The translations under genes were made by a program, and so were the position numbers. A model generated the notes under the pieces. The model had not been told where the DNA came from and did no database searches. It saw only the letters and a program-made list of their open reading frames with translations. 64,000 bases of DNA from Laetmonice hystrix (taxonomy: Eukaryota): the NCBI GenBank assembly GCA_965235115.1, contig OZ249436.1, forward strand, positions 5,334,001 through 5,398,000. The letters run 5' to 3'. Of this stretch, positions 1-38,000 are shown piece by piece (the stretch's first letter is position 1; each line of letters starts with the position of its first letter).

Positions 1-2
1 AT

Positions 3-4180: not shown

Positions 4181-4452
4181 CTATACAACTTTTCTCTTTA
4201 GGGACATTGTCAAAGTAATTGGGTTACCCCTGATGCCCGTGCATTTCAAAAGAAAAATACAGGCATGTTTCACAAACCCAAGAAACGGCCTTACCTCTTA
4301 TAGTATACAATGTATTTCGTAATTCCAGTTTGTAACAACATTTTTCAGAAATATGCATTTAAATCACAAACTAATGCCTTTATTGAATATATCTGGGCTT
4401 CTTTGTATTATTGTATTTCCAAGTACTACTTACCATGAGACATCTCTCAGTG

Positions 4453-7528: not shown

Positions 7529-7656
7529 GGCCCGGTTCACAAACAAAGTCAAGTCAATTTTAATTGACTTGAAGTCTATTATACTCAAATCTGATTGGTT
7601 AAAATGGATTTCAAGTTACATGTAATTAAAATTGACTTGACTTTGTGAACCGGGCC
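7529..7656. mobile_element. Palindromic PIF/Harbinger-type MITE
   Basis: TIRs GGCCCGGTTCACAAA...TTTGTGAACCGGGCC, long internal inverted repeat, 3-bp TSD ATG (7526-7528 and 7657-7659). Confidence 0.75.
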
Positions 7657-7784
7657 ATGATGTCCACGTACTTCAAGATTCAGAAACTGCCGGGTTCTAG
7701 GGTTCTACCTAGAAAAAAATGTCAGCATGGGGACAACCATCGGAAATGGCCAAGGAATATGACGCAGCGCCATGGTGGGGCGCC

Positions 7785-8339
7785 CAGGGGCGGATCTAGG
7801 GTCCAGGCCTCGAATTAGAAGTTAAAAGGGGCACAGCAAAAACGTTGAGGGCCTTGTTTAAAGGAGGGCACCACGGCATTTTTAACAAGTTTAGAAGGGC
7901 ACCACGGCAAATTTACTTCTCCAAAACCAAACCTCGCATGTCTGGCTTAACAGTAAAACAAGGAATCTTCACACTTTAGGTTAGTTGTGTTGGTGATCAC
8001 TAGGGGATCGATGTCAGGGATGATTCGGGGATGGCTGATGGGCACATCACGGCAAGGGAGAAGGGCACCACGGCACTGGACTGCCGTCAATGGGGCAAAA
8101 AATAGGAGGGCACCACGGTAAATGGAAGGGGCACGACGGCAATTGCCGTCGATGCCGTCGTGTAATTCGAGGCCTGAGGGTCTATATTCAGGGGGGGTCC
8201 TAGGGGGGTCCAGCATAAAAAGGGCAAATCGAGGGGGGTCCGTTGTAAAAACAAAAGGCATTTTGGTTATAAAAAATTAAATTTGGCAAATTTGAGGGGG
8301 GGTCCGGACGTCGCCGACACCCCCCTGGATCCGCCACTG
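7785..8339. mobile_element. hAT-like MITE (CAG(G/T)GGCGGATC TIRs, 6-bp TSD) carrying a nested MITE
   Basis: CAGGGGCGGATCTAGG...CCTGGATCCGCCACTG, TSD GGCGCC on both sides. After removing the nested insert it matches 10543-10730 in reverse orientation. Confidence 0.8.
7804..8176. mobile_element. Nested MITE (TIR CAGGCCTCGAATTA, 6-bp TSD AGGGTC)
   Basis: Perfect 14-bp TIRs, TSD at 7798-7803 and 8177-8182, internal repeated AGGGCACCACGGCA motifs. Confidence 0.8.
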
Positions 8340-10542: not shown

Positions 10543-10730
10543 CATAGGCGGATCCAGGGGGGGTGTCGGCGACGTCCCGCCCCCCCCCCCCCCCCCCTCA
10601 AATTTAATTTTTTATAACCAAAATGCCTTATTGTTTTTACAAGGGACCCCCCCCCTCGATTTGCCCTTTTTATGCTGGACCTCCCTCCGCCTCGGACCCC
10701 CCCTGAATGTAGACCCTAGATCCGCCCCTG
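10543..10730. mobile_element. hAT-like MITE, same family as 7785-8339, opposite orientation
   Basis: CATAGGCGGATCCAGG...CCTAGATCCGCCCCTG, 5-bp TSD CTAAG. Internal sequence is the reverse complement of 8177-8339. Confidence 0.8.
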
Positions 10731-15660: not shown

Positions 15661-16132
15661 AGTTGTAGCCATAAATAGCTAAACTGGACACTTTTGAAAA
15701 CTTCAAGGTCACGTGATTCAGCCAATATAGGTCAAATCGCTTATCCTTGGATGTTTCTATTAAAACACTTGTTAGAGAGTGTTCCTGCCCAATATTGTCA
15801 AATTTTACCCATAAATGAAGAAGAAGTAGCGATTTAACCGATTTGTGACCTAGGACCCAGTTCTCCCTAAGGTCAAAGGTCAAAGGTCAAATGAAGGGTC
15901 AGTTTTAGGCTAGACCCTTGCCTGATCATAACGCCATGATAGATCTTGGAAATTCCCAATATGAACTTTAAAAATGGCCCTAAATATCCCAAACACGTTT
16001 GACGTCATGACGTTATGACGTGACGTCACGTGACCTCATGATTAATTGTGTGACCTGACTTTGTCATGGTCAAGATATGTGCCAAGTTTGATTGAGATAT
16101 CTTGAAAAATGACTGAGATAGAGGTACTGTTT

Positions 16133-16170
16133 ACGACTACTACTACTACTACTACTACTACTACAACTAC
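16133..16170. repeat. (ACT)n microsatellite of the HINE 5' region; homologous tracts at ~29945-29970 and ~34856-34899
   Basis: Read directly. A microsatellite just inside the 5' sub-TIR is typical of DINE-1/HINE elements. Confidence 0.9.
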
Positions 16171-16246
16171 GCAAAAAATAATAATAATAGGGAAGACGAA
16201 ACCAGACAATTTCTAAATCCCATCCCCTGGATAGGGGATGGGATAA

Positions 16247-16307
16247 TAATAGGGAAGACGAAACCGTACAATCTGAAGATCCCATCCCCCTGTAGGGGAT
16301 GGGATAA
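16247..16307 (-). mobile_element. 5' terminal 61 bp of an outer HINE, identical to 34969-35029
   Basis: TAATAGGGAAGACGAAACCGTACAATCTGAAGATCCCATCCCCCTGTAGGGGATGGGATAA, containing hairpin ATCCCATCCCC/GGGGATGGGAT and abutting satellite TTACACATCTAGAG. Confidence 0.85.
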
Positions 16308-19300
16308 TTACACATCTAGAGATGCTGCAGGCAGAAAACACCAGGGTGCAGCTCAGCTGACTGCACTGCCGCCTTCTGGCCAGCGGTGGAATCACCACGT
16401 ACACCTGGCCGGGCTGGCAGGCACCTGTGGGTCTGAGGCGAGAGACAGGTTAAAGCAATGATAAGCGCAAAATGGCTACATTTTTGATACGTCAATTTGA
16501 AACTACGCCCCCCAAAATTATGATTCTTCGGCCACATGTAGAACTGTCAAACGTATAGGTCTCGTACGTTCGCTACAGATATATGGTTGTGATGTGTACA
16601 CTTCCCATTTGAGTATCTTCTCCAGATTTTAACATTAGAATGTCGTCGCCTGTACCTTTCATTTCCAGCTACCTCACTGTAGTGTTTGCATGACTGCTAT
16701 AGGCCAGCCGGTAAAATGTTGGGACTTCTCACTCTACTGGTTGGCCTCCCACAATGCTTGGCCCCACAGTGTAATGTTTGGCCTCACTGTACACTTTGGC
16801 CTCAATGTAGTGTTAGCTTGGGTGGTAGGCCACCCACTATACCTTGTAGCGATTCCTCCCTCTACTGTTTGGCCTTCCGGTACCGTTTGCTTGTATACAA
16901 GTGTAGCCAGTAGTATAGGGACGCCTCATGTTTCATGTTTCCATGCCTTTATTGTCCAGAAGGCAGGCCATACGTTTCGTTTATCATCTACTCCAATCTA
17001 ATCTGTGTGCCCTACAGACCATCGGTAAGCGTCCGACAACGTTGTCAGGTCGTCGCAATGACTGTTTGCCGTAAAGGTTTTGTTAACAATGGCAAATGAC
17101 GTTGTACGCCTTTTCTATATCAGATTTCCTATCCCCAAGTAACAAACAAACAAAGATTACACATCTAGAGATGCTGCAGGCAGAAAACACCAGGGTGCAG
17201 CTCAGCTGACTGCACTGCCGCCTTCCGGCCAGTGGTGAAATCACCACGTACACCTGTACGGGCTGGCAGGCACCTGTTGGTCTGAGGCGAGAGACAGGTT
17301 AAAGCAATGATAAGCGCAAAATGGCTACATTTTTGATACGTCAAATTGAAACTACGCGCCCCAAAATCATGATTCTTAGGCCAGATGTAGAACTGTCAAA
17401 CGTATAGGTCTCGTACGTTCGCTACAGATATATGGTTGTGATGTGTACACTTCCCATTTGAGTACCTTCTCCAGATTTTAACATTAGAATGTCCTCGCCT
17501 GTACCTTTCATTTCCAGCTACCTCACTGTAGTGTTTGCATGGCTGCTATAGGCCAGCCGGTAAAATGTTGGGACTTCTCACTCTACTGGTTGGCCTCCCA
17601 CAATGCTTGGCCCCACAGTGTAATGTTTGGCCTCACTGTACTCTTTGGCCTCACTGTAGTGTTCGCCTGGGTGCTAGGCCACCCAGTATACCTTGTAGCG
17701 ATTCCTCCCTCTACTGTTTGGCCTTCCTGTACCGTTTGCTTGTATACAAGAGTAGCCAGTAGTATAGGGACGCCTCATGTTTCATGTTTCCATGCCTTTA
17801 TTGTCCAGGAGGCAGGCCATACGTTTCGTTTATCATCTACTCCAATCTAATCTGTGTGCCCTACAGACCATCGGTAAGCGTCCGACAACGTTGTCAGGTC
17901 GTCGCAATGACTGTTTGGCGTAAAGGTTTTGTTAACAATGGCAAATGACGTTGTACGCCTTTTCTCTATCATTAAGGATACCGATCCTATCCCCAAGTAA
18001 CAAACAAACAAAGATTACACATCTAGAGATGCTGCAGGCAGAAAACACCAGGGTGCAGCTCAGCTGACTGCACTGCCGCCTTCTGGCCAGCGGTGGAATC
18101 ACCACGTACACCTGGCCGGGCTGGCAGGCACCTGTGGGTCTGAGGCGAGAGACAGGTTAAAGCAATGATAAGCGCAAAATGGCTACATTTTTGATACGTC
18201 AATTTGAAACTACGCCCCCCAAAATTATGATTCTTCGGCCACATGTAGAACTGTCAAACGTATAGGTCTCGTACGTTCGCTACAGATATATGGTTGTGAT
18301 GTGTACACTTCCCATTTGAGTATCTTCTCCAGATTTTAACATTAGAATGTCGTCGCCTGTACCTTTCATTTCCAGCTACCTCACTGTAGTGTTTGCATGA
18401 CTGCTATAGGCCAGCCGGTAAAATGTTGGGACTTCTCACTCTACTGGTTGGCCTCCCACAATGCTTGGCCCCACAGTGTAATGTTTGGCCTCACTGTACA
18501 CTTTGGCCTCACTGTAGTGTTAGCTTGGGTGCTAGGCCACCCACTATACCTTGTAGCGATTCCTCCCTCTACTGTTTGGCCTTCCGGTACCGTTTGCTTG
18601 TATACAAGTGTAGCCAGTAGTATAGGGACGCCTCATGTTTCATGTTTCCATGCCTTTATTACCCAGGAGGCAGGCCATACGTTTCGGTTATCATCTACTC
18701 CAATCTAATCTGTGTCCCCTACAGACCATCGGTAAGCGTCCGACAACGTTGTCAGGTCGTCCCAATGACTGTTTGCCGTAAAGGTTTTGTTAACAATGGC
18801 AAATGACGTTGTACGCCTTTTCTATATCAGATTTCCTATCCCCAAGTAACAAACAAACAAAGATTACACATCTAGAGATGCTGCAGGCAGAAAACACCAG
18901 GGTGCAGCTCAGCTGACTGCACTGCCGCCTTCCGGCCAGTGGTGGAATCACCACGTACACCTGTACGGGCTGGCAGGCACCTGTGGGTCTGAGGCGAGAG
19001 ACAGGTTAAAGCAATGATAAGCGCAAAATGGCTACATTTTTGATACGTCAAATTGAAACTACGCGCCCCAAAATCATGATTCTTAGGCCAGATGTAGAAC
19101 TGTCAAACGTATAGGTCTCGTACGTTCGCTACAGATATATGGTTGTGATGTGTACACTTCCCATTTGAGTACCTTCTCCAGATTTTAACATTAGAATGTC
19201 CTCGCCTGTACCTTTCATTTCCAGCTACCTCACTGTAGTGTTTGCATGGCTGCTATAGGCCAGCCGGTAAAATGTTGGGACTTCTCACTCTACTGGTTGG

Positions 19301-22300
19301 CCTCCCACAATGCTTGGCCCCACAGTGTAATGTTTGGCCTCACTGTACTCTTTGGCCTCACTGTAGTGTTCGCCTGGGTGCTAGGCCACCCAGTATACCT
19401 TGTAGCGATTCCTCCCTCTACTGTTTGGCCTTCCTGTACCGTTTGCTTGTATACAAGAGTAGCCAGTAGTATAGGGACGCCTCATGTTTCATGTTTCCAT
19501 GCTTTTATTGTCCAGGAGGCAGGCCATACGTTTCGTTTATCATCTTCTCCAATCTAATCTGTGTGCCCTACAGACCATCGGTAAGCGTCCGACAACGTTG
19601 TCAGGTCGTCGCAATGACTGTTTGCCGTAAAGGTTTTGTTAACAATGGCAAATGACGTTGTACGCCTTTTCTCTATCATTGGGGATACCGATCCTATCCC
19701 CAAGTAACAAACAAACAAAGATTACACATCTAGAGATGCTGCAGGCAGAAAACACCAGGGTGCAGCTCAGCTGACTGCACTGCCGCCTTCTGGCCAGCGG
19801 TGGAATCACCACGTACACCTGGCCGGGCTGGCAGGCACCTGTGGGTCTGAGGCGAGAGACAGGTTAAAGCAATGATAAGCGCAAAATGGCTACATTTTTG
19901 ATACGTCAATTTGAAACTACGCCCCCCAAAATTATGATTCTTCGGCCACATGTAGAACTGTCAAACGTATAGGTCTCGTACGTTCGCTACAGATATATGG
20001 TTGTGATGTGTACACTTCCCATTTGAGTATCTTCTCCAGATTTTAACATTAGAATGTCGTCGCCTGTACCTTTCATTTCTAGCTACCTCACTGTAGTGTT
20101 TGCATGACTGCTATAGGCCAGCCGGTAAAATGTTGGGACTTCTCACTCTACTGGTTGGCTTCCCACAATGCTTGGCCCCACAGTGTAATGTTTGGCCTCA
20201 CTGTACACTTTGGCCTCACTGTAGTGGTAGCTTGGGTGCTAGGCCACCCAGTATACCTTGTAGCGATTCCTCCCTCTACTGTTTGGCCTTCCTGTACCGT
20301 TTGCTTGTATACAAGAGTAGCCAGTAGTATAGGGACGCCTCATGTTTCATGTTTCCATGCCTTTATTGTCCAGGAGGCAGGCCATACGTTTCGTTTATCA
20401 TCTACTCCAATCTAATCTGTGTGCCCTACAGACCATCGGTAAGCGTCCGACAACGTTGTCAGGTCGTACCAATGACTGTTTGCCGTAAATGTTTTGTTAA
20501 CAATGGCAAATGACGTTGTACGCCTTTTCTATATCAGATATCCTATCCCCTAGTAACAAACAAACAAAGATGACACATCTAGAGATGATGCAGGCAGAAA
20601 ACACCAGGGTGCAGCTCAGATGACTGCACTGCCGCCTTCCGGCCAGCGGTGGAATCACCACGTACACCTGGCCGGGCTGGCAGGCACCTGTGGTAAAAGC
20701 CGGTAAAATGTTGGGACTTCTCACTCTACTGGTTGGCCTCCCACAATGCTTGGCCCCACAGTGTAATGTTTGGCCTCACTGTACACTTTGGCCTCACTGT
20801 AGTGTTAGCTTGGGTGGTAGGCCACCCAGTATACCTTGTAGCGATTCCTCCCTCTACTGTTTGGCCTTCCGGTACCGTTTGCTTGTATACAAGTGTAGCC
20901 AGTAGTATAGGGACGCCTCATGTTTCATGTTTCCATGCCTTTATTGTCCAGGAGGCAGGCCATACGTTTCGGTTATCATCTACTCCAATCTAATCTGTGT
21001 CCCCTACAGACCATCAGTAAGCGTCCGACAACGTTGTCAGGTCGTCGCAATGACTGTTTGCCGTAAAGGTTTTGTTAACAGTGGCAAATGACGTTGTACG
21101 CCTTTTCTATATCAGATATCCTATCCCCAAGTAACAAACAAACAAAGATTACACATCTAGAGATGCTGCAGGCAGAAAACACCAGGGTGCAGCTCAGCTG
21201 ACTGCACTGCCGCCTTCCGGCCAGCGGTGGAATCACCACGTACACCTGTCCGGGCTGGCAGGCACCTGTGGGTCTGAGGCGAGAGACAGGTTAAAGCAAT
21301 GATAAGCGCAAAATGGCTACATTTTTGATACGTCAAATTGAAACTACGCGCTCCAAAATCATGATTCTTAGGCCAGATGTAGAACTGTCAAACGTATAGG
21401 TCTCGTACGTTCGCTACAGATATATGGTTGTGATGTGTACCCTTCCCATTGGAGTACCTTCTCCAGATTTTAACATTAGAATGTCCTCGCCTGTACCTTT
21501 CATTTCCAGCTACCTCACTGTAGTGTTTGCATGGCTGCTATAGGCCAGCCGGTAAAATGTTGGGACTTCTCACTCTACTGGTTGGCCTCCCACAATGCTT
21601 GGCCCCACAGTGTAATGTTTGGCCTCACTGTACACTTTGGCCTCACTGTAGTGTTAGCTTGGGTGCTAGGCCACCCAGTATACCTTGTAGCGATTCCTCC
21701 CTCTACTGTTTGGCCTTCCTGTACCGTTTGCTTGTATACAAGTGTAGCCAGTAGTATAGGGACGCCTCATGTTTTATGTTTCCATGCCTTTATTGTCCAG
21801 GAGGCAGGCCATACGTTTCGTTTTTCATCTACTCCAATCTAATCTGTGTCCCCTACAGACCATCGGTAAGCGTCCGACAACGTTGTCAGGTCGTCGCAAT
21901 GACTGTTTGCCGTAAATGTTTTGTTAACAATGGCAAATGACGTTGTACGCCTTTTCTCTATCATTGGGGATACCGATCCTATCCCCAAGTAACAAACAAA
22001 CAAAGATTACACATCTAGAGATGCTGCAGGCAGAAAACACCAGGGTGCAGCTCAGCTGACTGCACTGCCGCCTTCTGGCCAGCGGTGGAATCACCACGTA
22101 CACCTGGCCGGGCTGGCAGGCACCTGTGGGTCTGAGGCGAGAGACAGGTTAAAGCAATGATAAGCGCAAAATGGCTACATTTTTGATACGTCAATTTGAA
22201 ACTACGCCCCCCAAAATTATGATTCTTCGGCCACATGTAGAACTGTCAAACGTATAGGTCTCGTACGTTCGCTACAGATATATGGTTGTGATGTGTACAC

Positions 22301-25300
22301 TTCCCATTTGAGTATCTTCTCCAGATTTTAACATTAGAATGTCGTCGCCTGTACCTTTCATTTCCAGCTACCTCACTGTAGTGTTTGCATGACTGCTATA
22401 GGCCAGCCGGTAAAATGTTGGGACTTCTCACTCTACTGGTTGGCCTCCCACAATGCTTGGCCCCACAGTGTAATGTTTGGCCTCACTGTACACTTTGGCC
22501 TCACTGTAGTGTTAGCTTGGGTGGTAGGCCACCCACTATACCTTGTAGCGATTCCTCCCTCTACTGTTTGGCCTTCCGGTACCGTTTGCTTGTATACAAG
22601 TGTAGCCAGTAGTATAGGGACGCCTCATGTTTCATGTTTCCATGCCTTTATTGTCCAGGAGGCAGGCCATACGTTTCGGTTATCATCTACTCCAATCTAA
22701 TCTGTGTCCCCTACAGACCATCAGTAAGCGTCCGACAACGTTGTCAGGTCGTCGCAATGACTGTTTGCCGTAAAGGTTTTGTTAACAGTGGCAAATGACG
22801 TTGTACGCCTTTTCTATATCAGATATCCTATCCCCAAGTAACAAACAAACAAAGATTACACATCTAGAGATGCTGCAGGCAGAAAACACCAGGGTGTAGC
22901 TCAGCTGACTGCACTGCCGCCTTCCGGCCAGCGGTGGAATCACCACGTACACCTGTCCGGGCTGGCAGGCACCTGTGGGTCTGAGGCGAGAGACAGGTTA
23001 AAGCAATGATAAGCGCAAAATGGCTACATTTTTGATACGTCAAATTGAAACTACGCGCTCCAAAATCATGATTCTTAGGCCAGATGTAGAACTGTCAAAC
23101 GTATAGGTCTCGTACGTTCGCTACAGATATATGGTTGTGATGTGTACCCTTCCCATTGGAGTACCTTCTCCAGATTTTAACATTAGAATGTCCTCGCCTG
23201 TACCTTTCATTTCCAGCTACCTCACTGTAGTGTTTGCATGGCTGCTATAGGCCAGCCGGTAAAATGTTGGGACTTCTCACTCTACTGGTTGGCCTCCCAC
23301 AATGCTTGGCCCCACAGTGTAATGTTTGGCCTCACTGTACACTTTGGCCTCACTGTAGTGTTAGCTTGGGTGCTAGGCCACCCAGTATACCTTGTAGCGA
23401 TTCCTCCCTCTACTGTTTGGCCTTCCTGTACCGTTTGCTTGTATACAAGTGTAGCCAGTAGTATAGGGACGCCTCATGTTTTATGTTTCCATGCCTTTAT
23501 TGTCCAGGAGGCAGGCCATACGTTTCGTTTATCATCTACTCCAATCTAATCTGAGTCCCCTACAGACCATCGGTAAGCGTCCGACAACGTTGTCAGGTCG
23601 TCGCAATGACTGTTTGCCGTAAAGGTTTTGTTAACAATGGCAAATGACGTTGTACGCCTTTTCTCTATCATTGGGGATACCGATCCTATCCCCAAGTAAC
23701 AAACAAACAAAGATTACACATCTAGAGATGCTGCAGGCAGAAAACACCAGGGTGCAGCTCAGCTGACTGCACTGCCGCCTTCTGGCCAGCGGTGGAATCA
23801 CCACGTACACCTGGCCGGGCTGGCAGGCACCTGTGGGTCTGAGGCGAGAGACAGGTTAAAGCAATGATAAGCGCAAAATGGCTACATTTTTGATACGTCA
23901 ATTTGAAACTACGCCCCCCAAAATTATGATTCTTCGGCCACATGTAGAACTGTCAAACGTATAGGTCTCGTACGTTCGCTACAGATATATGGTTGTGATG
24001 TGTACACTTCCCATTTGAGTATCTTCTCCAGATTTTAACATTAGAATGTCGTCGCCTGTACCTTTCATTTCTAGCTACCTCACTGTAGTGTTTGCATGAC
24101 TGCTATAGGCCAGCCGGTAAAATGTTGGGACTTCTCACTCTACTGGTTGGCTTCCCACAATGCTTGGCCCCACAGTGTAATGTTTGGCCTCACTGTACAC
24201 TTTGGCCTCACTGTAGTGGTAGCTTGGGTGCTAGGCCACCCAGTATACCTTGTAGCGATTCCTCCCTCTACTGTTTGGCCTTCCTGTACCGTTTGCTTGT
24301 ATACAAGAGTAGCCAGTAGTATAGGGACGCCTCATGTTTCATGTTTCCATGCCTTTATTGTCCAGGAGGCAGGCCATACGTTTCGTTTATCATCTACTCC
24401 AATCTAATCTGTGTGCCCTACAGACCATCGGTAAGCGTCCGACAACGTTGTCAGGTCGTACCAATGACTGTTTGCCGTAAATGTTTTGTTAACAATGGCA
24501 AATGACGTTGTACGCCTTTTCTATATCAGATATCCTATCCCCTAGTAACAAACAAACAAAGATGACACATCTAGAGATGATGCAGGCAGAAAACACCAGG
24601 GTGCAGCTCAGATGACTGCACTGCCGCCTTCCGGCCAGCGGTGGAATCACCACGTACACCTGGCCGGGCTGGCAGGCACCTGTGGTAAAAGCCGGTAAAA
24701 TGTTGGGACTTCTCACTCTACTGGTTGGCCTCCCACAATGCTTGGCCCCACAGTGTAATGTTTGGCCTCACTGTACACTTTGGCCTCACTGTAGTGTTAG
24801 CTTGGGTGGTAGGCCACCCAGTATACCTTGTAGCGATTCCTCCCTCTACTGTTTGGCCTTCCGGTACCGTTTGCTTGTATACAAGTGTAGCCAGTAGTAT
24901 AGGGACGCCTCATGTTTCATGTTTCCATGCCTTTATTGTCCAGGAGGCAGGCCATACGTTTCGGTTATCATCTACTCCAATCTAATCTGTGTCCCCTACA
25001 GACCATCAGTAAGCGTCCGACAACGTTGTCAGGTCGTCGCAATGACTGTTTGCCGTAAAGGTTTTGTTAACAGTGGCAAATGACGTTGTACGCCTTTTCT
25101 ATATCAGATATCCTATCCCCAAGTAACAAACAAACAAAGATTACACATCTAGAGATGCTGCAGGCAGAAAACACCAGGGTGCAGCTCAGCTGACTGCACT
25201 GCCGCCTTCCGGCCAGCGGTGGAATCACCACGTACACCTGTCCGGGCTGGCAGGCACCTGTGGGTCTGAGGCGAGAGACAGGTTAAAGCAATGATAAGCG

Positions 25301-28300
25301 CAAAATGGCTACATTTTTGATACGTCAAATTGAAACTACGCGCTCCAAAATCATGATTCTTAGGCCAGATGTAGAACTGTCAAACGTATAGGTCTCGTAC
25401 GTTCGCTACAGATATATGGTTGTGATGTGTACCCTTCCCATTGGAGTACCTTCTCCAGATTTTAACATTAGAATGTCCTCGCCTGTACCTTTCATTTCCA
25501 GCTACCTCACTGTAGTGTTTGCATGGCTGCTATAGGCCAGCCGGTAAAATGTTGGGACTTCTCACTCTACTGGTTGGCCTCCCACAATGCTTGGCCCCAC
25601 AGTGTAATGTTTGGCCTCACTGTACACTTTGGCCTCACTGTAGTGTTAGCTTGGGTGCTAGGCCACCCAGTATACCTTGTAGCGATTCCTCCCTCTACTG
25701 TTTGGCCTTCCTGTACCGTTTGCTTGTATACAAGTGTAGCCAGTAGTATAGGGACGCCTCATGTTTTATGTTTCCATGCCTTTATTGTCCAGGAGGCAGG
25801 CCATACGTTTCGTTTTTCATCTACTCCAATCTAATCTGTGTCCCCTACAGACCATCGGTAAGCGTCCGACAACGTTGTCAGGTCGTCGCAATGACTGTTT
25901 GCCGTAAATGTTTTGTTAACAATGGCAAATGACGTTGTACGCCTTTTCTCTATCATTGGGGATACCGATCCTATCCCCAAGTAACAAACAAACAAAGATT
26001 ACACATCTAGAGATGCTGCAGGCAGAAAACACCAGGGTGCAGCTCAGCTGACTGCACTGCCGCCTTCTGGCCAGCGGTGGAATCACCACGTACACCTGGC
26101 CGGGCTGGCAGGCACCTGTGGGTCTGAGGCGAGAGACAGGTTAAAGCAATGATAAGCGCAAAATGGCTACATTTTTGATACGTCAATTTGAAACTACGCC
26201 CCCCAAAATTATGATTCTTCGGCCACATGTAGAACTGTCAAACGTATAGGTCTCGTACGTTCGCTACAGATATATGGTTGTGATGTGTACACTTCCCATT
26301 TGAGTATCTTCTCCAGATTTTAACATTAGAATGTCGTCGCCTGTACCTTTCATTTCCAGCTACCTCACTGTAGTGTTTGCATGACTGCTATAGGCCAGCC
26401 GGTAAAATGTTGGGACTTCTCACTCTACTGGTTGGCCTCCCACAATGCTTGGCCCCACAGTGTAATGTTTGGCCTCACTGTACACTTTGGCCTCACTGTA
26501 GTGTTAGCTTGGGTGGTAGGCCACCCACTATACCTTGTAGCGATTCCTCCCTCTACTGTTTGGCCTTCCGGTACCGTTTGCTTGTATACAAGTGTAGCCA
26601 GTAGTATAGGGACGCCTCATGTTTCATGTTTCCATGCCTTTATTGTCCAGGAGGCAGGCCATACGTTTCGGTTATCATCTACTCCAATCTAATCTGTGTC
26701 CCCTACAGACCATCAGTAAGCGTCCGACAACGTTGTCAGGTCGTCGCAATGACTGTTTGCCGTAAAGGTTTTGTTAACAGTGGCAAATGACGTTGTACGC
26801 CTTTTCTATATCAGATATCCTATCCCCAAGTAACAAACAAACAAAGATTACACATCTAGAGATGCTGCAGGCAGAAAACACCAGGGTGTAGCTCAGCTGA
26901 CTGCACTGCCGCCTTCCGGCCAGCGGTGGAATCACCACGTACACCTGTCCGGGCTGGCAGGCACCTGTGGGTCTGAGGCGAGAGACAGGTTAAAGCAATG
27001 ATAAGCGCAAAATGGCTACATTTTTGATACGTCAAATTGAAACTACGCGCTCCAAAATCATGATTCTTAGGCCAGATGTAGAACTGTCAAACGTATAGGT
27101 CTCGTACGTTCGCTACAGATATATGGTTGTGATGTGTACCCTTCCCATTGGAGTACCTTCTCCAGATTTTAACATTAGAATGTCCTCGCCTGTACCTTTC
27201 ATTTCCAGCTACCTCACTGTAGTGTTTGCATGGCTGCTATAGGCCAGCCGGTAAAATGTTGGGACTTCTCACTCTACTGGTTGGCCTCCCACAATGCTTG
27301 GCCCCACAGTGTAATGTTTGGCCTCACTGTACACTTTGGCCTCACTGTAGTGTTAGCTTGGGTGCTAGGCCACCCAGTATACCTTGTAGCGATTCCTCCC
27401 TCTACTGTTTGGCCTTCCTGTACCGTTTGCTTGTATACAAGTGTAGCCAGTAGTATAGGGACGCCTCATGTTTTATGTTTCCATGCCTTTATTGTCCAGG
27501 AGGCAGGCCATACGTTTCGTTTATCATCTACTCCAATCTAATCTGAGTCCCCTACAGACCATCGGTAAGCGTCCGACAACGTTGTCAGGTCGTCGCAATG
27601 ACTGTTTGCCGTAAATGTTTTGTTAACAATGGCAAATGACGTTGTACGCCTTTTCTCTATCATTAAGGATACCGATCCTATCCCCAAGTAACAAACAAAC
27701 AAAGATTACACATCTAGAGATGCTGCAGGCAGGAAACACCAGGGTGCAGCTCAGCTGACTGCACTGCCGCCTTCTGGCCAGCGGTGGAATCACCACGTAC
27801 ACCTGGCCGGGCTGGCAGGCACCTGTGGGTCTGAGGCGAGAGACAGGTTAAAGCAATGATAAGCGCAAATGGCTACATTTTTGATACGTCAATTTGAAAC
27901 TACGCCCCCCAAAATTATGATTCTTCGGCCAGATGTAGAACTGTCAAACGTATAGGTCTCGTACGTTCGCTACAGATATATGGTTGTGATGTGTACACTT
28001 CCCATTTGAGTATCTTCTCCAGATTTTAACATTAGAATGTCGTCGCCTGTACCTTTCATTTCCAGCTACCTCACTGTAGTGTTTGCATGACTGCTATAGG
28101 CCAGCCGGTAAAATGTTGGGACTTCTCACTCTACTGGTTGGCCTCCCACAATGCTTGGCCCCACAGTGTAATGTTTGGCCTCACTGTACACTTTGGCCTC
28201 ACTGTAGTGTTAGCTTGGGTGCTAGGCCACCCACTATACCTTGTAGCGATTCCTCCCTCTACTGTTTGGCCTTCCGGTACCGTTTGCTTGTATACAAGTG

Positions 28301-28553
28301 TAGCCAGTAGTATAGGGACGCCTCATGTTTCATGTTTCCATGCCTTTATTGTCCAGGAGGCAGGCCATACGTTTCGGTTATCATCTACTCCAATCTAATC
28401 TGTGTCCCCTACAGACCATCGGTAAGCGTCCGACAACGTTGTCAGGTCGTCCCAATGACTGTTTGCCGTAAAGGTTTTGTTAACAATGGCAAATGACGTT
28501 GTACGCCTTTTCTATATCAGATATCCTATCCCCAAGTAACAAACAAACAAAGA
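16308..28553. repeat. ~850-bp macrosatellite, block 1 (15 monomers of 849/858/578 bp; 1707-bp dimer and 3992-bp higher-order repeat)
   Basis: Equivalent positions at 17001, 17850, 18708, 19557, 20415, 20993, 21842, 22700, 23549, 24407, 24985, 25834, 26692, 27541, 28398. Confidence 0.97.
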
Positions 28554-29243
28554 CTAGATACGTTGTGGAGTACCACAATGGATCCCATCCCCGGGGTGTC
28601 CCATGTAACATGTTCTGAATAGGGATAACTATGGTACTATCTTGCACCCGTGACGACTTATGAGCCTTAGAAGATGGAAGTTACGTCATTATGACCTTAT
28701 GCTACGTCATAAATATTGATCTCAATGGACTTCCTATTCATGTTCAAAAATAACTATAGGTGTATCTAGCACCGTTTACTAGTTACAGGCTTCTACCAAT
28801 CCTTAGAAGGGCTCAGTTACGTCATAAGGATGTAATAGATCACACAACAGAATAAATCTTGGTGTCAATTGAAAGAACATAATGAGGACTTCCTGTTTAT
28901 AAATATTCAATACTAACTATGGGTCTAACTCCTACCATTTACAAGTTAAAACCCTGAGAAAATATCGATGACATCGTTATGTCATGGGTCACGTGACCTA
29001 AGAAATAATGATGCCAAACGAAAGAGTATACATGACTTCCTATTCGTGTTCAATAGTAACTATGGGTCTAACTTCAAGCATTAACAAGTTATATCCCTTA
29101 GAAAATATCGATGACATCTTTACGACGTCACAGGTGACGTGACCTTAAGGATGACGATACCAAGTGATAGCAAGTTATAGCCCTCACAAAATATAGGTTC
29201 ACTGGCTGTGGTAATCAGTACTAGTTCAATCCAGTATTAGCTT

Positions 29244-29322
29244 GTCAGATGGCGTAGCACTGGCGATAAGTGTCTTGACTCACATGCTATGGGTCGCCGG
29301 TTCAATCCCAGGCCGAGTCACC
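29244..29322 (+). pseudogene. tRNA-like relic / SINE head inside the outer HINE
   Basis: A-box-like TGGCGTAGCACTGG, B-box GGTTCAATCCC, then a T run. The 3' part GTTCAATCCCAGGCCGAGTCAC is duplicated at ~29356. Confidence 0.5.
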
Positions 29323-30239
29323 TATTTTTTTGGACTTCTACCGGAAGGGTCCCGCGTTCAATCCCAGGCCGAGTCACGTTTCTTTTTGTTTTTGTTTTTT
29401 CCCTCTAATTTTTAAAAATGGTCACGTGACCTGAAAAAAAAAATATCATAAAAGAGCATAATGACTTCTTATCTGTGTTTAATAGTAACCAATGCCAAAT
29501 CTGGCACCGTTTACAAGTTCTAGAAAATTGACAATTTTTCGAAATTTCAAAGTCACGTGATTCAGCGAATATTAGTCAAATCGCTTATCTTTTGATGATT
29601 TGAGACAAGCTCATGTTAGAGAGTCCTTCTGCCTAATATTGTCGAATTTCACCAAAAAATGAAGAAGGAGTAGCGATTTAAGAGATTTGTGACTGAGGAC
29701 CCAGTTCTCCTAAAGTTCAAGGTCAAATGACAAATGAAGGGTCCATGTTAGACTAGACCATTGCCTGATTAAAACACCATGATGGGGTTTGGAAATTTCC
29801 AATATGAACGTCATGACGTGACGTCATACGTCACGTCACGTGATATGTCACAACTCATTGTCTGACGAGTCCTTGTCATGGTCAAGATGTGTGCCAAATT
29901 TGATTGAGATATCTTGAAAACTGACTGAGATGGACGCCACTGTTTACTACTACTACTACTACTACTACGACGCAAAGAATAACTAGCCCGACTGATTGCT
30001 TAAGCAATACAGGGATCCCTTCCCCTGACGAGGAACAATGAAGCAATAATAAAAATAATAATGATAACGAGGCAATAGGTGTTGCTAGGCAACACCAGAT
30101 CCCATTTCCCATTTATGTACATGACGTGCACCTAGCCATGACGTGTACAACTACGTGACGTGTACCTAGCCATGACGTGTACCTAGCCAAAACCAGACAT
30201 GGCGATTAGTATGGCTATAACAATGGCACAACAGGCATT

Positions 30240-31730
30240 GGTGTATTATGACGTCATTATGACGTTATACGTCACACGACGTCATAAGTCTTGGTGGCAA
30301 CTGAAAGAGCATCTATGAGTTCCTATTCGGGTTCAATAGTAACTATGATCGTATCTAGCACCGTTTAGGAGTTACAGGCCTCTGAAAATCCTTAGAAAAT
30401 GGCTATGACGTCATTATGACGTCATACGTGATGATAGGTCAAAAAGGTTGGTGGCATTCGAAAGAGCATATATGACTTCCTATTCATGTTCAATATTAAC
30501 CATGGCTCTATCTTACACCGTTTCAGAGTTACCGCCATTTGTTTCTCAAAAATGGCTATGACCCAATTTCGATGTCACATGGTATGCTAAAAATAGTGCA
30601 CAGCCCTTAGTCTGATCCCGGGGATCTGGGAAATCCCATGGAGATTCCCTGGTATAAATTTGGGCTCGATTTGTCAAAAATTGTTGGAGTTCAGGCGAAT
30701 TAGTAACATTTTGAGCTGTGACCTAGATTTCAAGAAGGTCAAAGGTCAGAGGTCAAATTGATGAATAAAATTATTCCCTCTCAAGTGGCAAGCTAAGTGC
30801 TATGAATGAATTTTCTCTGATCATGGGACTGGTAAAATGAGGCACAATGAGGTACTTCCCAAAACACCAAATTACGTCATGACGTCACGTCATATGACGT
30901 AAATCTTGGTGTCATTTGAAAGAGCATCTATGAGATCCTATTCGTGTTCAATAGTACCTATGACCCTATCTAGCACAGTTTAAGAGTTATAGGCCTCTGA
31001 AAATGCCAATGACGTCATTATGACGTTATACGTCACATGACGTCATAAATCCTGGTGTCAATTGAAAGAGCATATATGACTTCCTATTCATGTTCAATAG
31101 TAACCATGGCTCTATCTTAAACGGTTTCAGAGTTACAGCCATTTGTTTCTCAAAAATGGCTATGACCCAATTTCGATGTCACGTACGTGGTATGCTAAAA
31201 ATAGGGCACAACACCTAGTCTGATCCCGGGCCTCTGGGGAATCCTATGGAGATTCCCTGGTATCAATTTGGGCTCGATTTGTCAAAAATTGTGAGAGGAG
31301 TATCGAAATAGTCACATTTTGACCTGTAACCTAGATCTCAAGAAGGTCAAGGGTCAGAGGTCAAATTGATAAATAAAATGATTCCCCCTCGAGAGGCAAG
31401 CTGGGTGCTATGAATGAATTTTCTCTAACTGATCATGGGACTGGTACAATGTGGTACAATGAGGTACTTGCCAAAGCATCAAATAACGTCATGACGTCAG
31501 GTCATATGACGTAAATGTTAGTAACTGAAAATCCTTAGAAAATGTGAATGACGTCACTATGACGTCATAGTTTATACGTCACGATAGGTAAAAATGTTGG
31601 TGTCAATTGCAAGAGTATTTAAGACTTACTATTCATGTTGAGTAGTAACCATGGCTCTATAATACCGTTTCAGAGTTACAGTCATTTGTTTCTCAAAAAT
31701 GGCTATGACCCAAATTCAATGTCACATGCC
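30240..31730. repeat. ~600-bp internal tandem repeat (about 2.5 copies) of the inner HINE, built from TGACGTCA-rich subunits
   Basis: GTTTCTCAAAAATGGCTATGACCCAA at 30541, ~31146 and ~31688. Shares GAAAGAGCATATATGACTTCCTATT with the 146-bp repeat. Confidence 0.8.
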
Positions 31731-32299
31731 ATTTCTCTTGTTTCAAAGTTTAGCACCTGGTCGCACCCCCCCCCCCCCCCCCCCGGCAATATCCCGGGTC
31801 ATGGGCTGCCACATATCGCCATGTGGGAGGAAGGGGGTCCCCGATAAAATATAATATTTAGCCGACATATTGATATGTGACCATCCCTGGCCCAGATATT
31901 CTCCATCCAATACAATACAATATGTTTATTCACAACCTCGATGGAGGCAAAGGAACAGGGTCAGGGATTGTATCTTATAGTAGCACTGCTCACTCCATTT
32001 GCCACCGCCAGGGCCCAGCCCCCTAGCGTGAGGACAGTGTATAGTTGAGACGTGCTGCTACCTGGTGTCAAACTTCGCCCCCCCCCCCCCCCCCCCCCAC
32101 GGTTGATTGTGTGCTAACAAGATGGGTTTTTGATTTCTTACTCTAGCCATTTCCTTAGCCAAAACGCAGCCATACTTTTTAAAACGTTACACACAAGAAG
32201 CTATAAATGTTTAATCTATACATCGACTTTCAAAGCAAAAGTCTACATTAAATATTTACAAAGACAGGCAGCAGTAGCAATTCAAAGCCATGCATTAAG

Positions 32300-33522
32300 T
32301 AGCTTGGTTCCCGCCTCCCGTGTAGGTGGCGCTAGGCGCGCACGGTAGGCTAGGCACAAAGGTTGACGTCATCGCTCGTCCGGAAGTAAACAAAAGCACG
32401 TGGACTGGTGGAGTCGATCGAGCGGTACCGATCTAGCTGTTGGAATCACGCCAGAAATGGCAAGTTTTTGTTGGAGTGGTAGGCCTAGGCTATATGGCCC
32501 GTAATAATTTGATTTTACATCTCATATCACCTATGGCTATATTACAGCTCCCACCATCTCTCCTCGTCCCCCACTACCTGAACGCTTCCGAGTCCTTGTA
32601 CCACTACGGCCAGTGCTGGTTACCTGCCTGGCATCACGTCACTTACGCCCGCCGCGAATGATCCCGGGAGGCCGCCGAGCCTGCCCGGGGTGAGCGAGGG
32701 AGCGGCGGCCAGTGGCTCGCTTACTCGCTCAAACTGCCGCCGGCCCGCCGGCCGCTCGCTCGCTCGCTGCCGGGGCTTGTAGTGGGCCTCGGCCGGTCCG
32801 TTCGGCCGGGACTTGTATAGGGGGCCTCGCCCTCGGCCAGTCGGTTCGGCTAGGGCTTGTTGATCTAGGCGGATCTAGGATTTTTAAACAATTGCCGAGA
32901 ATTGGACTATATAATTGGCTGACCTATACCAACCAGCACCAGGGCGCCGCTACCGTCTGCTTTGACGGGACCCTTGGCCTTGCTGGGTCGGCGGGCTCAG
33001 TCAAATCGCGTCGGGCTCATACGCCGTGTATTCGTTCCGAACATTAAAACGGTCGCTGTCATGAGACGAAATGCGACATATTGCTCATATTTGTACCACA
33101 TCATGAGGTACATCCCCTTTGTGATTTACCAAGTTTTCAGCCATATGTCGCGATCCAGTAAAATTTTAGAGGAATTCAAACATGAAACGAACCCATCAGA
33201 CTACCCCTCAATCGACCTATTATCGCCCAATGGGGGTCACCCGATACTTCGCGTTTTCTTTACAATTCCTCCCATTAACTCACAAACTTTGATCTTAAGG
33301 TTGAATCGGTGAAGTGTATAAACATTTTAACAACGTTCTAACAGTTAATTATAAATAATAAACTGTTAGTGCTACTTATTTTCTCTTTTTTTCCGCGCAC
33401 ACGATCGCCTTTTCTGCCCGCACAGGCTCACGTGGTTTGTTTACATCTGAGCGCAAAGGATTGTGGGTGATGACGTAAACCTTTGTGCAAGACCTACACC
33501 AGTAGGTCGCGGAACAAGGCTA
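32300..33522. mobile_element. Non-autonomous DNA transposon with 9-bp TSD and long imperfect TIRs (MULE-like), nested in the inner HINE
   Basis: TSD TGCATTAAG at 32291-32299 and 33523-33531. Ends TAGCTTGGTTCC / GGAACAAGGCTA. Subterminal inverted match GCACAAAGGTT(G/T)ACGTCATC. Confidence 0.75.
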
Positions 33523-35029
33523 TGCATTAAGCAGAAAGTCATAGCTCTTCAGAAAAGTATATGCTTGATGTGCGACAGGTCTGGCGTTCGATTCCCCATC
33601 AAGTCATTTGCTGTTTTCGTTTTGATGTTGTTTTTCGACTGAATTTGAAAAATATTATGTTTCTCCCCTTTACAATTGCCAGTCATTCGGCTACAGATAA
33701 TTTACAGCTATATTTCACGTTTAATGACGAAATATACAGCATACACCACTCACTCTCTGCAGTGTGGACTTACTATGGAGAACGCCATTGGATTTAACTG
33801 AGTTTTGTTAGTAAATAGCTTCGGTCTTCACATGGCGAGTTCCATTCCGAGACTTGGAATCTCCTCTTCAAAGTTGCCTGACATTGAGCTAAATATCTAC
33901 TTGAAGTACTCCCCATAGTTTTAGGCAGAAATATTAGATACTTATTAATACAGAGGGCGATAGGCTCAGCGTCCACAGTCGGCCCATCACGCGGACACCA
34001 AGCGAGGCCCCGACATCACTCACGAAACCAGGTTTCTAGGTCACTCGATCAGTGGTCAAATTGCCTGTCTCTCTTCACGACCTTCTCTTATATAATTGAT
34101 CTCCGTATTGTTAATTATATATTTTGCCAATTGAAATTTATATTATCTTAAAGTAGACAGTTTAAAGTCCACACCGTGTAAATATTAAAACGCTGAGCTT
34201 ATTGTCCTGTAGTTGAGACGTGCCCCAAATTAAGAAAGAGATGACGTTGTAGATGACGTTGTAGATGACGTCACAAGTCACGTGGCACAAAAAATATGGT
34301 ACCTAATTAAAGTAGACATAAAACTTTCTAAGGTTCATTAAGAATTATGGCTCTGTCTCAAATCATTCAAGAGTTACAGCACAGAATCTTCGAAATGACC
34401 TAAGTCAAGCCCAAGTTCAAAACTTTCAGGTCACGTGGTTCAGCGAAAATAGGTCAAATCGCTTATCCACCGAGGAATCTGTTGGAGCTGTCCCTAGAGA
34501 GTGCCTCTGCGAAATATTGTCAAGATTTATCCAAAAATGGGGAAGAAGTAATGATTTAACCGATTTACGAGCTAGGGACCAGGTCTCTCTAAGTTCAAAG
34601 GTCAAAGGTCAAATGAAGGGTCAGACTTATGCAGCACCCTTGCCCGACTAAAATGCCATGACGGATTTTCGAAATTCCCAAGATGAGGTTCAAAAATGAG
34701 CTTTAATGTACACAACACGTTTCACGTCATGACGTCATGACGTGACGTTACGTGACGTCATGACGCACCATGAGATCAGAGTTTGTCATCGTGAAGACGT
34801 AGCCCAAGTTTCATTGAGATATCTTGAAAAATGACTGAGATATACGTATAGGTTTACGACTACTACGACTACGACTACTACTACTACTACTACTACTACA
34901 GGCATAAAAATAAGGAAGACGAAACCAGACAATTTCAAGATCCCTTCCCCTATCGGGGGAAGGGATAATAATAGGGAAGACGAAACCGTACAATCTGAAG
35001 ATCCCATCCCCCTGTAGGGGATGGGATAA

Positions 35030-38000
35030 TTACACATCTAGAGATGCTGCAGGCAGAAAACACCAGGGTGCAGCTCAGCTGACTGCACTGCCGCCTTCCG
35101 GCCAGTGGTGGAATCACCACGTACACCTGTACGGGCTGGCAGGCACCTGTGGGTCTGAGGCGAGAGACAGGTTAAAGCAATGATAAGCGCAAAATGGCTA
35201 CATTTTTGATACGTCAAATTGAAACTACGCGCCCCAAAATCATGATTCTTAGGCCAGATGTAGAACTGTCAAACGTATAGGTCTCGTACGTTCGCTACAG
35301 ATGTATGGTTGTGATGTGTACCCTTCCCATTTGAGTACCTTCTCCAGATTTTAACATTAGAATGTCCTCGCCTGTACCTTTCATTTCCAGCTACCTCACT
35401 GTAGTGTTTGCATGGCTGCTATAGGCCAGCCGGTAAAATGTTGGGACTTCTCACTCTACTGGTTGGCCTCCCACAATGCTTGGCCCCACAGTGTAATGTT
35501 TGGCCTCACTGTACTCTTTGGCCTCACTGTAGTGTTCGCCTGGGTGCTAGGCCACCCAGTATACCTTGTAGCGATTCCTCCCTCTACTGTTTGGCCTTCC
35601 TGTACCGTTTGCTTGTATACAAGAGTAGCCAGTAGTATAGGGACGCCTCATGTTTCATGTTTCCGTGCCTTTATTGTCCAGGAGGCAGGCCATACGTTTC
35701 GTTTATCATCTTCTCCAATCTAATCTGTGTGCCCTACAGACCATCGGTAAGCGTCCGACAACGTTGTCAGGTCGTCGCAATGACTGTTTGCCGTAAAGGT
35801 TTTGTTAACAATGGCAAATGACGTTGTACGCCTTTTCTCTATCATTGGGGATACCGATCCTATCCCCAAGTAACAAACAAACAAAGATTACACATCTAGA
35901 GATGCTGCAGGCAGAAAACACCAGGGTGCAGCTCAGCTGACTGCACTGCCGCCTTCTGGCCAGCGGTGGAATCACCACGTACACCTGGCCGGGCTGGCAG
36001 GCACCTGTGGATCTGAGGCGAGAGACAGGTTAAAGCAATGATAAGCGCAAAATTGCTAAATTTTTGATACGTCAATTTGAAACTACGCCCCCCAAAATTA
36101 TGATTCTTCGGCCACATGTAGAACTGTCAAGTGTATAGGTCTCGTACGTTCGCTACAGATATATGGTTGTGATGTGTACACTTCCCATTTGAGTATCTTC
36201 TCCAGATTTTAACATTAGAATGTCGTCGCCTGTACCTTTCATTTCTAGCTACCTCACTGTAGTGTTTGCATGACTGCTATAGGCCAGCCGGTAAAATGTT
36301 GGGACTTCTCACTCTACTGGTTGGCTTCCCACAATGCTTGGCCCCACAGTGTAATGTTTGGCCTCACTGTACACTTTGGCCTCACTGTAGTGTTAGCTTG
36401 GGTGCTAGGCCACCCAGTATACCTTGTAGCGATTCCTCCCTCTACTGTTTGGCCTTCCTTTACCGTTTGCTTGTATACAAGTGTAGCCAGTAGTATAGGG
36501 ACGCCTCGTGTTTCATGTTTCCATGCCTTTATTGTCCAGGAGGCAGGCCATACGTTTCGGTTATCATCTACTCCAATCTAATCTGTGTCCCCTACAGACG
36601 ATCGGTAAGCGTCCGACAACGTTGTCAGGTCGTCCCAATGACTGTTTGCCGTAAAGGTTTTGTTAACAATGGCAAATGACGTTGTACGCCTTTTCTATAT
36701 CAGATATCCTATCCCCAAGTAACAAACAAAGACGACACATCTAGAGATGCTGTAGGCAGAAAACACCAGGGTGCAGCTCAGCTGACTGCACTGCCGCCTT
36801 CTGGCCAGCGGTGGAATCACCACGTACACCTGGCCGGGCTGGCAGGCACCTGTGGCTCTGAGGCGAGAGACAGGTTAAAGCAATGATAAGCGCAAAATGG
36901 CTACATTTTTGATACGTCAATTTGAAACTACGCGCCCCAAAATTATGATTCTTAGGCCAGATGTAGAACTGTCAAACGTATGGGTCTCGTACGTTCGCTA
37001 CACATATATAGTTGTGATGTGTACACTTCCCATTTGAGTATCTTCTCCAGATTTTAATATTAGAATGTCCTCGCCTGTACTTTTCATTTCCACTACCTCA
37101 CTGTAGTGTTTCGATGGCTGCTATAGGCCAGCCGGTAAAATGTTGGGACTTCTCACTCTACTGATTGGCCTCCCACAATGCTTGGCCCCACAGTGTAATG
37201 TTTGGCCTCACTGTACTCTTTGGCCTCACTGTAGTGTTCGCTTGGGTGCTAGGCCACCCAGTATACCTTGTAGCGATTCCTCCCTCTACTGTTTGGCCTT
37301 CCTGTACCGTTTGCTTGTATACAAGTGTAGCCAGTAGTATAGGGACGCCTCATGTTTTATGTTTCCATGCCTTTATTGTCCAGGAGGCAGGCCATACGTT
37401 TCGTTTATCATCTACTCCAATCTAATCTGAGTCCCCTACAGACCATCGGTAAGCGTCCGACAACGTTGTCAGGTCGTCGCAATGACTGTTTGCCGTAAAT
37501 GTTTTGTTAACAATGGCAAATGACGTTGTACGCCTTTTCTATATCAGATATCCTATCCCCAAGTAACAAACAAAGACGACACATCTAGAGATGCTGTAGG
37601 CAGAAAACACCAGGGTGCAGCTCAGCTGACTGCACTGCCGCCTTCTGGCCAGCGGTGGAATCACCACGTACACCTGGCCGGGCTGGCAGGCACCTGTGGC
37701 TCTGAGGCGAGAGACAGGTTAAAGCAATGATAAGCGCAAAATGGCTACATTTTTGATACGTCAATTTGAAACTACGCGCCCCAAAATTATGATTCTTAGG
37801 CCAGATGTAGAACTGTCAAACGTATGGGTCTCGTACGTTCGCTACACATATATAGTTGTGATGTGTACACTTCCCATTTGAGTATCTTCTCCAGATTTTA
37901 ATATTAGAATGTCCTCGCCTGTACTTTTCATTTCCACTACCTCACTGTAGTGTTTCGATGGCTGCTATAGGCCAGCCGGTAAAATGTTGGGACTTCTCAC

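Follow-up and report, generated by a model that had tools for sequence, protein, structure and literature searches.

Helentrons and HINEs are Helitron-like elements that have been defined by structure. In the portions of the literature consulted (PMC4067079, PMC11417382), the definition, here HLE2, comprises 11- to 15-bp subterminal inverted repeats (subTIRs) lying 2 to 4 nt from the 5' end and tens of nucleotides from the 3' end, an inverted repeat (IR) near the 5' subTIR, a 3' stem-loop, insertion without target site duplication (TSD) at a T-rich T/T site (a slash within a sequence marks the cut), and an autonomous partner with Rep, helicase, and APE endonuclease that has at least 11 bp of identical subTIR. 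On how Helitron-like transposases choose and nick their targets, the literature consulted gives di- to pentanucleotide rules only. For Helraiser, the consulted part of the report gives a preference for AT and AT-rich DNA and no local hopping (PMC4778049).

The locus analyzed here is a 64,000-nt stretch of the Laetmonice hystrix genome, hereafter the window (contig OZ249436.1, termed C1, positions 5,334,001 to 5,398,000; assembly of 627 Mb in 35 contigs). In it, a satellite array of alternating 849- and 858-bp monomers is interrupted by two insertions of a 1.49-kb non-coding HINE, termed A. The insertions are independent events of a young, dispersed, non-autonomous element, each later hit by a member of the same family. 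Genome-wide, A has a real hot spot in an A-rich tract of the satellite monomer, but the satellite is a minority target; a stronger hot spot, and the family's main preferred target, is a site in the 5' subterminal region of existing family copies. Both hot spots adjoin an 11-bp subTIR motif, the self site lying before it and the satellite tract after it. An original prediction, made from the window alone, had instead read the locus as a dedicated landing pad, with the family targeting one defined phosphodiester in a satellite that serves as a safe haven.

Elements A, B, and C of this family fit the structural definition of HINE/Helentron (HLE2), a class assignment made by structure. The family subTIR is 11 bp long and lies 2 nt from the 5' end, while its 3' copy begins 28 to 32 nt from the 3' end (far edge ∼39 to 43 nt away). 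An IR accompanies the 5' subTIR, a stem-loop lies at the 3' end, insertion is without TSD at a T-rich site whose consensus AA/TNA reads T/T on the element strand after a 1-nt boundary shift, and C encodes Rep, helicase, and APE endonuclease and has an identical subTIR of at least 11 bp. The consulted part of PMC4067079 describes the same parts for Helentrons, HINEs, and DINE-1, namely a 5' subTIR with IR hairpin, a microsatellite, central repeats, a 3' subTIR with stem-loop, no TSD, a T-rich target, and a RepHel-endonuclease partner with the same subTIR. The target preference given there is T-rich/TT only, whereas the present family has two long-range hot spots adjacent to subTIR sequence, a TNA/TT core, and a 3' end that reads CTAG or, given a 1-nt ambiguity, CTAGT in a T/T site. 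With canonical Helitrons (HLE1), which have a 5' TC and no terminal inverted repeats, A has in common only the CTAG 3' end and the A/T reading; its 5' end is TT(A), and subTIRs are present. Nor does A behave like R2/Dada-type elements, most copies of which occupy one fixed nucleotide in a conserved RNA gene: its satellite insertions fall in a 19-nt zone, and the satellite was rejected as an RNA-gene array, with no Rfam match in the window at gathering score or in two monomers at E ≤ 1.

Three further systems are close in one respect each. In FoHeli1/2 of Fusarium oxysporum, the target likewise begins TNAT (the legend and text disagree on the next base), and short (<200 bp) stacked 5' termini were attributed to proposed self-insertion (PMC5148889). 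The consulted part of that paper contains one nested example and no fixed site, whereas here full nests, consisting of host body, guest, and host stub, occur at one site with high frequency, and a second hot spot is present in a satellite. Telomere-associated Helitrons of Paramecium were proposed, in the consulted part of PMC13085455, to insert specifically and in fixed orientation into a host tandem repeat. They form a separate clade with a telomeric repeat and absolute orientation bias, unlike the present case, in which the satellite is a minority target resembling the element's own end. The oyster Cg_HINE is another HINE-satellite association in a marine invertebrate, but in the sections of PMC7492417 consulted the satellite is cargo inside the HINE, whereas here the HINE inserts into an unrelated 850-bp satellite. 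In the literature on Helentron and HINE target sites, nesting, self-insertion, and hot spots, no subTIR-adjacent or satellite hot spot was found to be reported, most subscription journals, supplements, and Repbase being outside the scope. The elements are of a known type, with a bias in target choice that the literature searched did not contain.

Both satellite interruptions are nests on the minus strand with A as the outer element. HINE A runs in the order CTAG 3' end, stem-loop, 3' subTIR, 146-bp repeats, core, (TAC)n, and 5' IR/subTIR hairpin, and both copies are split at AATAA/TAATAGGG, 61 bp from the 5' end, by a guest with the same subTIR. In insertion 2, the guest is family member B (29983..34968), which carries the subTIR variant ATCCCTTCCCC at both ends (30015 and 34940/34956); it separates the A body and 3' end (28554..29982, with CTAG, stem-loop, and 3' subTIR at 28582) from the 61-bp 5' stub (34969..35029), all on the minus strand. 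In insertion 1, the guest is Helentron C, whose 5' part fills positions 1..16246 (minus strand) up to the A stub at 16247..16307 (minus strand; IR 16279-16289, subTIR 16295-16305); between the two halves of A there is a single 3' end and a single 5' hairpin bearing the family subTIR. C extends upstream to a CTAG 3' end at window coordinate -10461 (minus strand; ∼26.7 kb overall), beyond which lies the 1,426-bp A body (window coordinates -11886 to -10462). With the two ends of A joined in circular form, pairing is predicted between the final 9 nt of the 3' end and the segment that follows the IR (28554-28600, 34969-35029).

Within the window, the 16308 junction has no satellite to its left. Its partner end was found at C1:5322114, 11,886 bp upstream of the window; this 3' end of insertion 1 (window coordinate -11886) abuts the same AAAGA, and the array resumes beyond it. 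Therefore, the junction is one side of a genuine 28,194-bp interruption. The HINE end of 61 bp that the original prediction had seen at both junctions is indeed identical, but it is the stub of A left by nesting rather than the whole end of the adjacent bodies; those just left of the stubs are only ∼75 to 81% alike, because different guests (C and B) split A.

The satellite spans 16308-47810 with one gap, at 28554-35029 (array 16308..28553 and continuation 35030..47810, plus strand). Left of insertion 2, its higher-order repeat measures 3,992 bp and is made up of four complete monomers plus a deleted one; to the right, it measures ∼3,129 bp. The junctions at 16307/16308 and 35029/35030 are identical over 68 bp leftward and 69 bp rightward, and excision of 28554-35029 (6,476 bp) rebuilds AAAGA/TTACAC with no TSD, so that the coordinates, identity, and clean restoration first described were borne out. 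Also as described, the monomers after the two junctions are of the two different subtypes that had been named. Insertion 1 is flanked by 858-type and CCTTCTGG monomers and insertion 2 by 849-type and CCTTCCGG monomers, each pair being in native array order, which places the two insertions in opposite monomer phase on both flanks. A single origin would therefore require exchanges confined to ∼30 bp leftward and 69 bp rightward. In addition, although the A bodies of insertions 1 and 2 are 98.7% identical, they were rejected as sisters in a tree of 62 A bodies (approximately unbiased [AU] test, p 4.5e-4; 6 of 69 bodies dropped as partial or diverged, one duplicate row removed, bootstraps not fully settled). 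Duplication of a single junction within the array, including descent of both from one insertion by unequal crossover, was ruled out by flank phase and tree together.

The same tree bears on the idea that one or a few founder insertions were spread through the satellite by satellite turnover, unequal crossover, or homing-like gene conversion. Three pairs of copies with identical flanks, probably duplicates (C1:12.11/12.13, C3:25.90/26.04, and C7:24.54/24.56 Mb), and two small supported clades rich in satellite copies are what such spreading would leave. Against it, the satellite-resident copies as a single clade were rejected (AU p 1.7e-106; 25 satellite and 37 other bodies), satellite residence required 19 changes on the tree compared with 19.6 when shuffled, with at least 7 changes forced by supported branches, and eight different cut offsets were found, differing even within the satellite-rich clades. 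One founder for all satellite copies was ruled out by the tree tests, and spreading from a few is largely refuted and highly improbable.

For subfamily A, 225 5' ends and 263 3' ends were counted, and they are spread across every large contig listed. When 172 of the left flanks were classified by eye (106 distinct ones also being checked by BLAST), 110 were unrelated loci, one of them with a right flank 76% like the satellite; family members had received 31 in their 5' region, HINE repeats 3, the satellite tract 25, and one other satellite position 3. Beyond the two exact junctions, whose 27-nt sequence occurs only twice in the genome with one relative at 3 mismatches, the satellite hot spot became visible only with diverged satellite subfamilies and offsets allowed. 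There were 39 A 3' ends within 30 nt after the 11-mer genome-wide, 29 in satellite and 10 following a HINE 5' hairpin. Four further satellite ends with variant motifs gave at least 33 of 263, on 12 contigs, or at least 30 after likely duplicates were collapsed. Cuts were observed 7, 8, 9, 10, 14, 20, 24, and 25 nt from the motif, 20 of the 33 at the distal AGA, GGA, or TGA end of the tract, which is the homologue of the window site, and 13 proximally.

The tabulated flanks thus show satellite enrichment together with a majority of insertions at unrelated sites. A hot spot at this region of the monomer stood up, but one defined site within it did not, the cuts being spread over 7 to 25 nt. Dedication of the family to one phosphodiester draws on the 20 of 33 tract insertions at the distal end; with ∼110 of 172 flanks unrelated, 5' and 3' ends dispersed, and offsets variable, it is refuted as an exclusive rule and hardly credible. 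Since ∼87% of A copies lie outside the satellite site, the reading as a dedicated landing pad fails. A safe-haven role also found no support: 52,643 genome-wide matches to a 26-mer put the satellite at ≥45 Mb, or ≥7% of the genome, and it houses ∼14% of A, while the main preferred target is the family's own 5' region.

In the window, the subTIR-like 11-mer lies at 28523..28533 (plus strand), with one mismatch in the window array, and is perfect in most hit monomers elsewhere. It is followed by the A-rich tract (28534..28553, plus strand), the most A-rich 20-mer of the monomer. A secondary site, AAA/TGA (28493..28494, plus strand), lies 29 nt before the motif; it is empty in the window and was used in two independent events elsewhere. 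An inverted relative of the monomer (48158-48566, minus strand), 69 to 78% diverged, retains the perfect 11-mer at 48344-48354; the motif thus stays conserved as the remaining sequence drifts. Among hit and unhit monomers, a perfect motif was present in 16/24 and 5/22, respectively; the comparison was not used as evidence, the unhit set being mostly the variant array of the window. The 858-type monomers (e.g., 19681-19701) contain a small hairpin, GGGGATA-7 nt-TATCCCC, that includes the subTIR-like motif, and insertion 1 lies behind one. The monomer itself was rejected as a HINE, since its 11-mer is accompanied by neither a 5' hairpin nor a CTAG/stem-loop at the proper spacing.

To set the tract against local base preference, a position weight matrix (PWM) was built from 95 left and 32 right ordinary flanks, with background from 94 kb of flanks. 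The ordinary consensus is AA/TNA on the plus strand shown, TNA/TT on the element strand, with A weakly favoured upstream, from -16 to -3. The window site ranked 2nd to 13th in the monomer under the three PWM widths used, and 0.53 to 1.10 of 263 insertions were expected in the tract, compared with the at least 33 observed. The rest of the monomer received 3 to 4 of 172 A insertions (∼2%), compared with 2.5 to 5% expected. A-richness alone was ruled out as a cause, as tracts of equal A-richness outside the satellite, ∼263,000 in number, received 1 of the 95 ordinary insertions; that tract number is a rough estimate from the 94-kb background, and the gap is still 30- to 60-fold.

Two alternatives attribute the excess to the state of the target DNA. 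One holds that easily melted or bent A, AAC, or AAAG tracts create a preference beyond an additive PWM. T-rich targets are reported for HINEs in the consulted parts of PMC4067079 and PMC7492417, ordinary sites show the weak A bias just noted, and the self site is a TAA repeat. However, only 1/95 ordinary sites has ≥14 A in 20, though such tracts are about fivefold commoner than monomers; 13/33 satellite cuts are only 7 to 14 nt from the C-rich motif, with 7 to 11 upstream A in the fetched ones; and a subfamily bias, described below, is left unexplained. Local structure is accordingly a very unlikely cause. The other holds that phased nucleosomes, or else a protein binding the satellite, leave the A-tract as its only accessible part and that the transposase moving A, a different partner, is drawn to the satellite, the subTIR match being incidental or historical. 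The total A load of the satellite (∼14%) is only about twice its genome share (≥7%), which makes funnelling inside the monomer a large part of the signal; no 20-mer of the monomer is richer in A than the tract; and AT-rich, open DNA is favoured by Helraiser in the consulted part of PMC4778049. On the other hand, the remainder of the monomer shows no depletion against the PWM, no funnelling to the tract is seen in non-A members, and both the self hot spot and the common 11-mer beside the two hot spots go unexplained. A chromatin or host-protein effect is therefore a possible but rather unlikely explanation.

The self site is the 5' subterminal TAA repeat of existing copies, 32 to 38 nt from the internal repeat and 32 nt ahead of the subTIR 11-mer. 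Among 40 non-A 3' ends sampled from C1, 2 to 22.5 Mb (∼2% of all; three "HINE other" rows assigned to the self site by eye), 26 lay at the 5' subterminal site or right after a 5' hairpin and 14 at ordinary sites, while none lay in satellite. For A, 31/172 ends were at the self site or adjoining 5' end (by eye); on C1, another member's 5' unit preceded 21 of the first 30 A 5' ends. With ∼3,000 5' hairpins in the genome (2 × 1,454 forward matches), the PWM predicts 0.1 to 0.35%; the self site is hence a stronger hot spot than the satellite. At C1:70577200-70602703, a run of nine A 3' ends is spaced at 1,432-bp steps, every one placed after the self site of the body before it; this Russian-doll nest, with stacked 5' units downstream, resembles a tandem array. 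In another subfamily, 62-bp 5' units with the same hairpin are stacked at C2:39789506-39789703 and 8 other places, so 5' stacking also occurs outside subfamily A.

The best overall explanation, about as apt to be right as wrong, is that RepHel tethered at subTIR-like DNA nicks the nearest usable A/T. A donor-loaded RepHel would bind a subTIR-like duplex in the target and nick nearby; real 5' ends, with two motif copies, would attract most insertions, and the satellite half-site would attract weakly, needing an extra A-specific determinant, such as a different partner transposase or sequence next to the IR of A. The satellite would then be a decoy target rather than a dedicated pad. The spacings agree with those of the element itself: the 32 to 38 nt at the self site matches the 28 to 32 nt between the 3' subTIR and 3' end, the satellite cuts at 7 to 25 nt bracket the 18 nt between the IR and 5' end, and both non-tract events in the main satellite lineages lie 29 nt before the motif, at the 3'-end spacing. 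Base choice at the satellite cuts departs from the ordinary core, with G at -2 in 20/33 compared with 2/95 ordinary sites and +1 often A or C at proximal sites, which fits a tethering that relaxes local base choice. IS911 works in a comparable way, its insertion being targeted next to IR-like sequences by a transposase that picks targets resembling its own ends; it is, however, a bacterial DDE enzyme of unrelated chemistry that uses a double-stranded circle and a fixed short spacing.

Tract use is strongly biased by subfamily. An all-family 3'-end pattern at the tract gave 35 matches, 28 from A and 7 from others, after 11 further rows representing 5' hairpins of another subfamily were set aside. 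With 2,279 family 3' ends in total, this amounts to 28/263 for A and 7/∼2,016 for non-A (Fisher p 5e-21). Non-A members are not simply older, because A copies host many of them; of 20 satellite-resident A copies fetched, 13 contained a nested family member.

Several observations weigh against tethering at the motif. All subfamilies have the same subTIR, yet non-A tract use is 0.35%, no higher than the PWM expectation, which means that the motif does not suffice by itself. One hot spot precedes the motif and the other follows it, and the satellite position whose spacing corresponds to that of the self site has been used only weakly (2 events) and is also among the top 4 PWM sites. The motif is mismatched in 7/33 hit monomers, including both in the window, and 0/95 ordinary sites have the motif nearby at ≤2 mismatches; subTIR or 5'-end words near ordinary A sites were none above shuffles. 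Insertion 1 occurred without TCAGAT, a block discussed below, counter to motif models. All 40 non-A ends were sampled within a single 20-Mb stretch of C1, the background model was built on only 94 kb of flanks and 32 right flanks, and RepHel binding and nicking at subTIR-like DNA are deductions.

A further alternative is guidance by DNA. In this view, the single-stranded 5' end of A, comprising the subTIR and subfamily-specific bases after the IR, pairs with the target strand. Ends that base-pair with the target strand, which is cut at a fixed position, are known from IS608-type HUH elements. The A subTIR (12 nt) and the blocks TCAGAT and TTGTACG after the IR all match the satellite within 35 nt, so DNA guidance would account for the A bias. 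Both blocks are present in the 5' unit of A and absent from the other common units (longest match, 4 to 6 nt), and the satellite TCAGAT, kept in 20/24 hit monomers, abuts the 11-mer to give 17 contiguous pairable bases. A two-block null gave 0.00175, in a test devised after the match was seen, but a single local alignment did not reach significance (7.5% of shuffles). The 858-type monomer behind which insertion 1 lies lacks TCAGAT, cuts are scattered over 19 nt, ordinary A sites have no excess of 5'-end 6-mers (21/95, compared with 21.9 shuffled), and the near-palindrome ATCAGAT equally allows an extended protein site. DNA guidance is thus quite unlikely, and tethering of RepHel at subTIR-like DNA is retained as the better explanation.

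By its domains and the common 11-mer, C is an autonomous Helentron and a candidate partner of HINE A. Its 2,902-codon open frame starts within the window (1..2435, minus strand) and reaches window coordinate -6270; its domains are Rep (HUH), Pif1 helicase, and APE-type endonuclease. The Pfam matches (Helitron_like_N, E 1.5e-35; PIF1, 4.6e-20; Exo_endo_phos, 1.3e-10) all lie upstream of the window, the 811 codons within it having no Pfam domain match, and the frame matches the Helraiser structure 7lcc (E 1.7e-18). Toward its 5' end, C contains a 146-bp central tandem repeat in 11 copies (14061..15644), homologous to the repeats of A and B, then the (TAC)n microsatellite of the HINE/Helentron 5' region (16132..16170) and the 5' subTIR/IR hairpin and 5' end (16217..16246, minus strand). 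Genome-wide, 125 Rep-domain matches were found, 103 of them full-length in open frames of >1,600 codons (counted by eye), from which it follows that the family can probably still move. Many of these frames have 2,800 to 3,600 codons, an unusually large pool of intact Helitron-like transposases. The interiors of B (31800-34200) and C (2436-14000) contain long stretches without a recognised coding frame, with a GC-rich part at 32300-33500; these may be captured DNA or other insertions.

Other features of the window lie mostly to the right of the array. Tandem repeats of 52 bp (47865-48098 and 49002-49279) have CCTCACTGTAGTGTTTG in common with an 18-bp subrepeat inside the monomer, and the two are possibly of the same origin. 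A frame at 52600-52971 (minus strand) has no Pfam match; it contains a stretch reminiscent of the end of a Harbinger-type nuclease. A 49-bp minisatellite occupies 55334-58880 (72 copies, 96% matches), and an exon-like frame at 59847-60236 (plus strand) matches a glutathione S-transferase C-terminal domain (GST_C_3, E 5e-8).

The data suggest that Helentrons choose targets in a way not found in the literature searched, and that in some subfamilies more than half of new insertions are taken up by self-nesting. Self-nesting also gives a concrete origin for stacked 5' termini and accounts for the mis-annotation of such elements as chimeras. The genome constitutes a natural mapping experiment: it contains ∼2,300 family ends and ∼100 RepHel frames that are intact, and each of its two hot spots, used tens to hundreds of times more than the local rule predicts, adjoins the family's own subTIR. 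The natural enzyme and the defined targets make the targeting question directly testable. If pairing with the end sequence is true, changing the donor end would redirect insertion, which would point to a retargetable eukaryotic integrase for large cargo (27 kb here), and the 45-Mb satellite and the family's own 5' ends would act as sinks for a family with ∼100 intact transposases.

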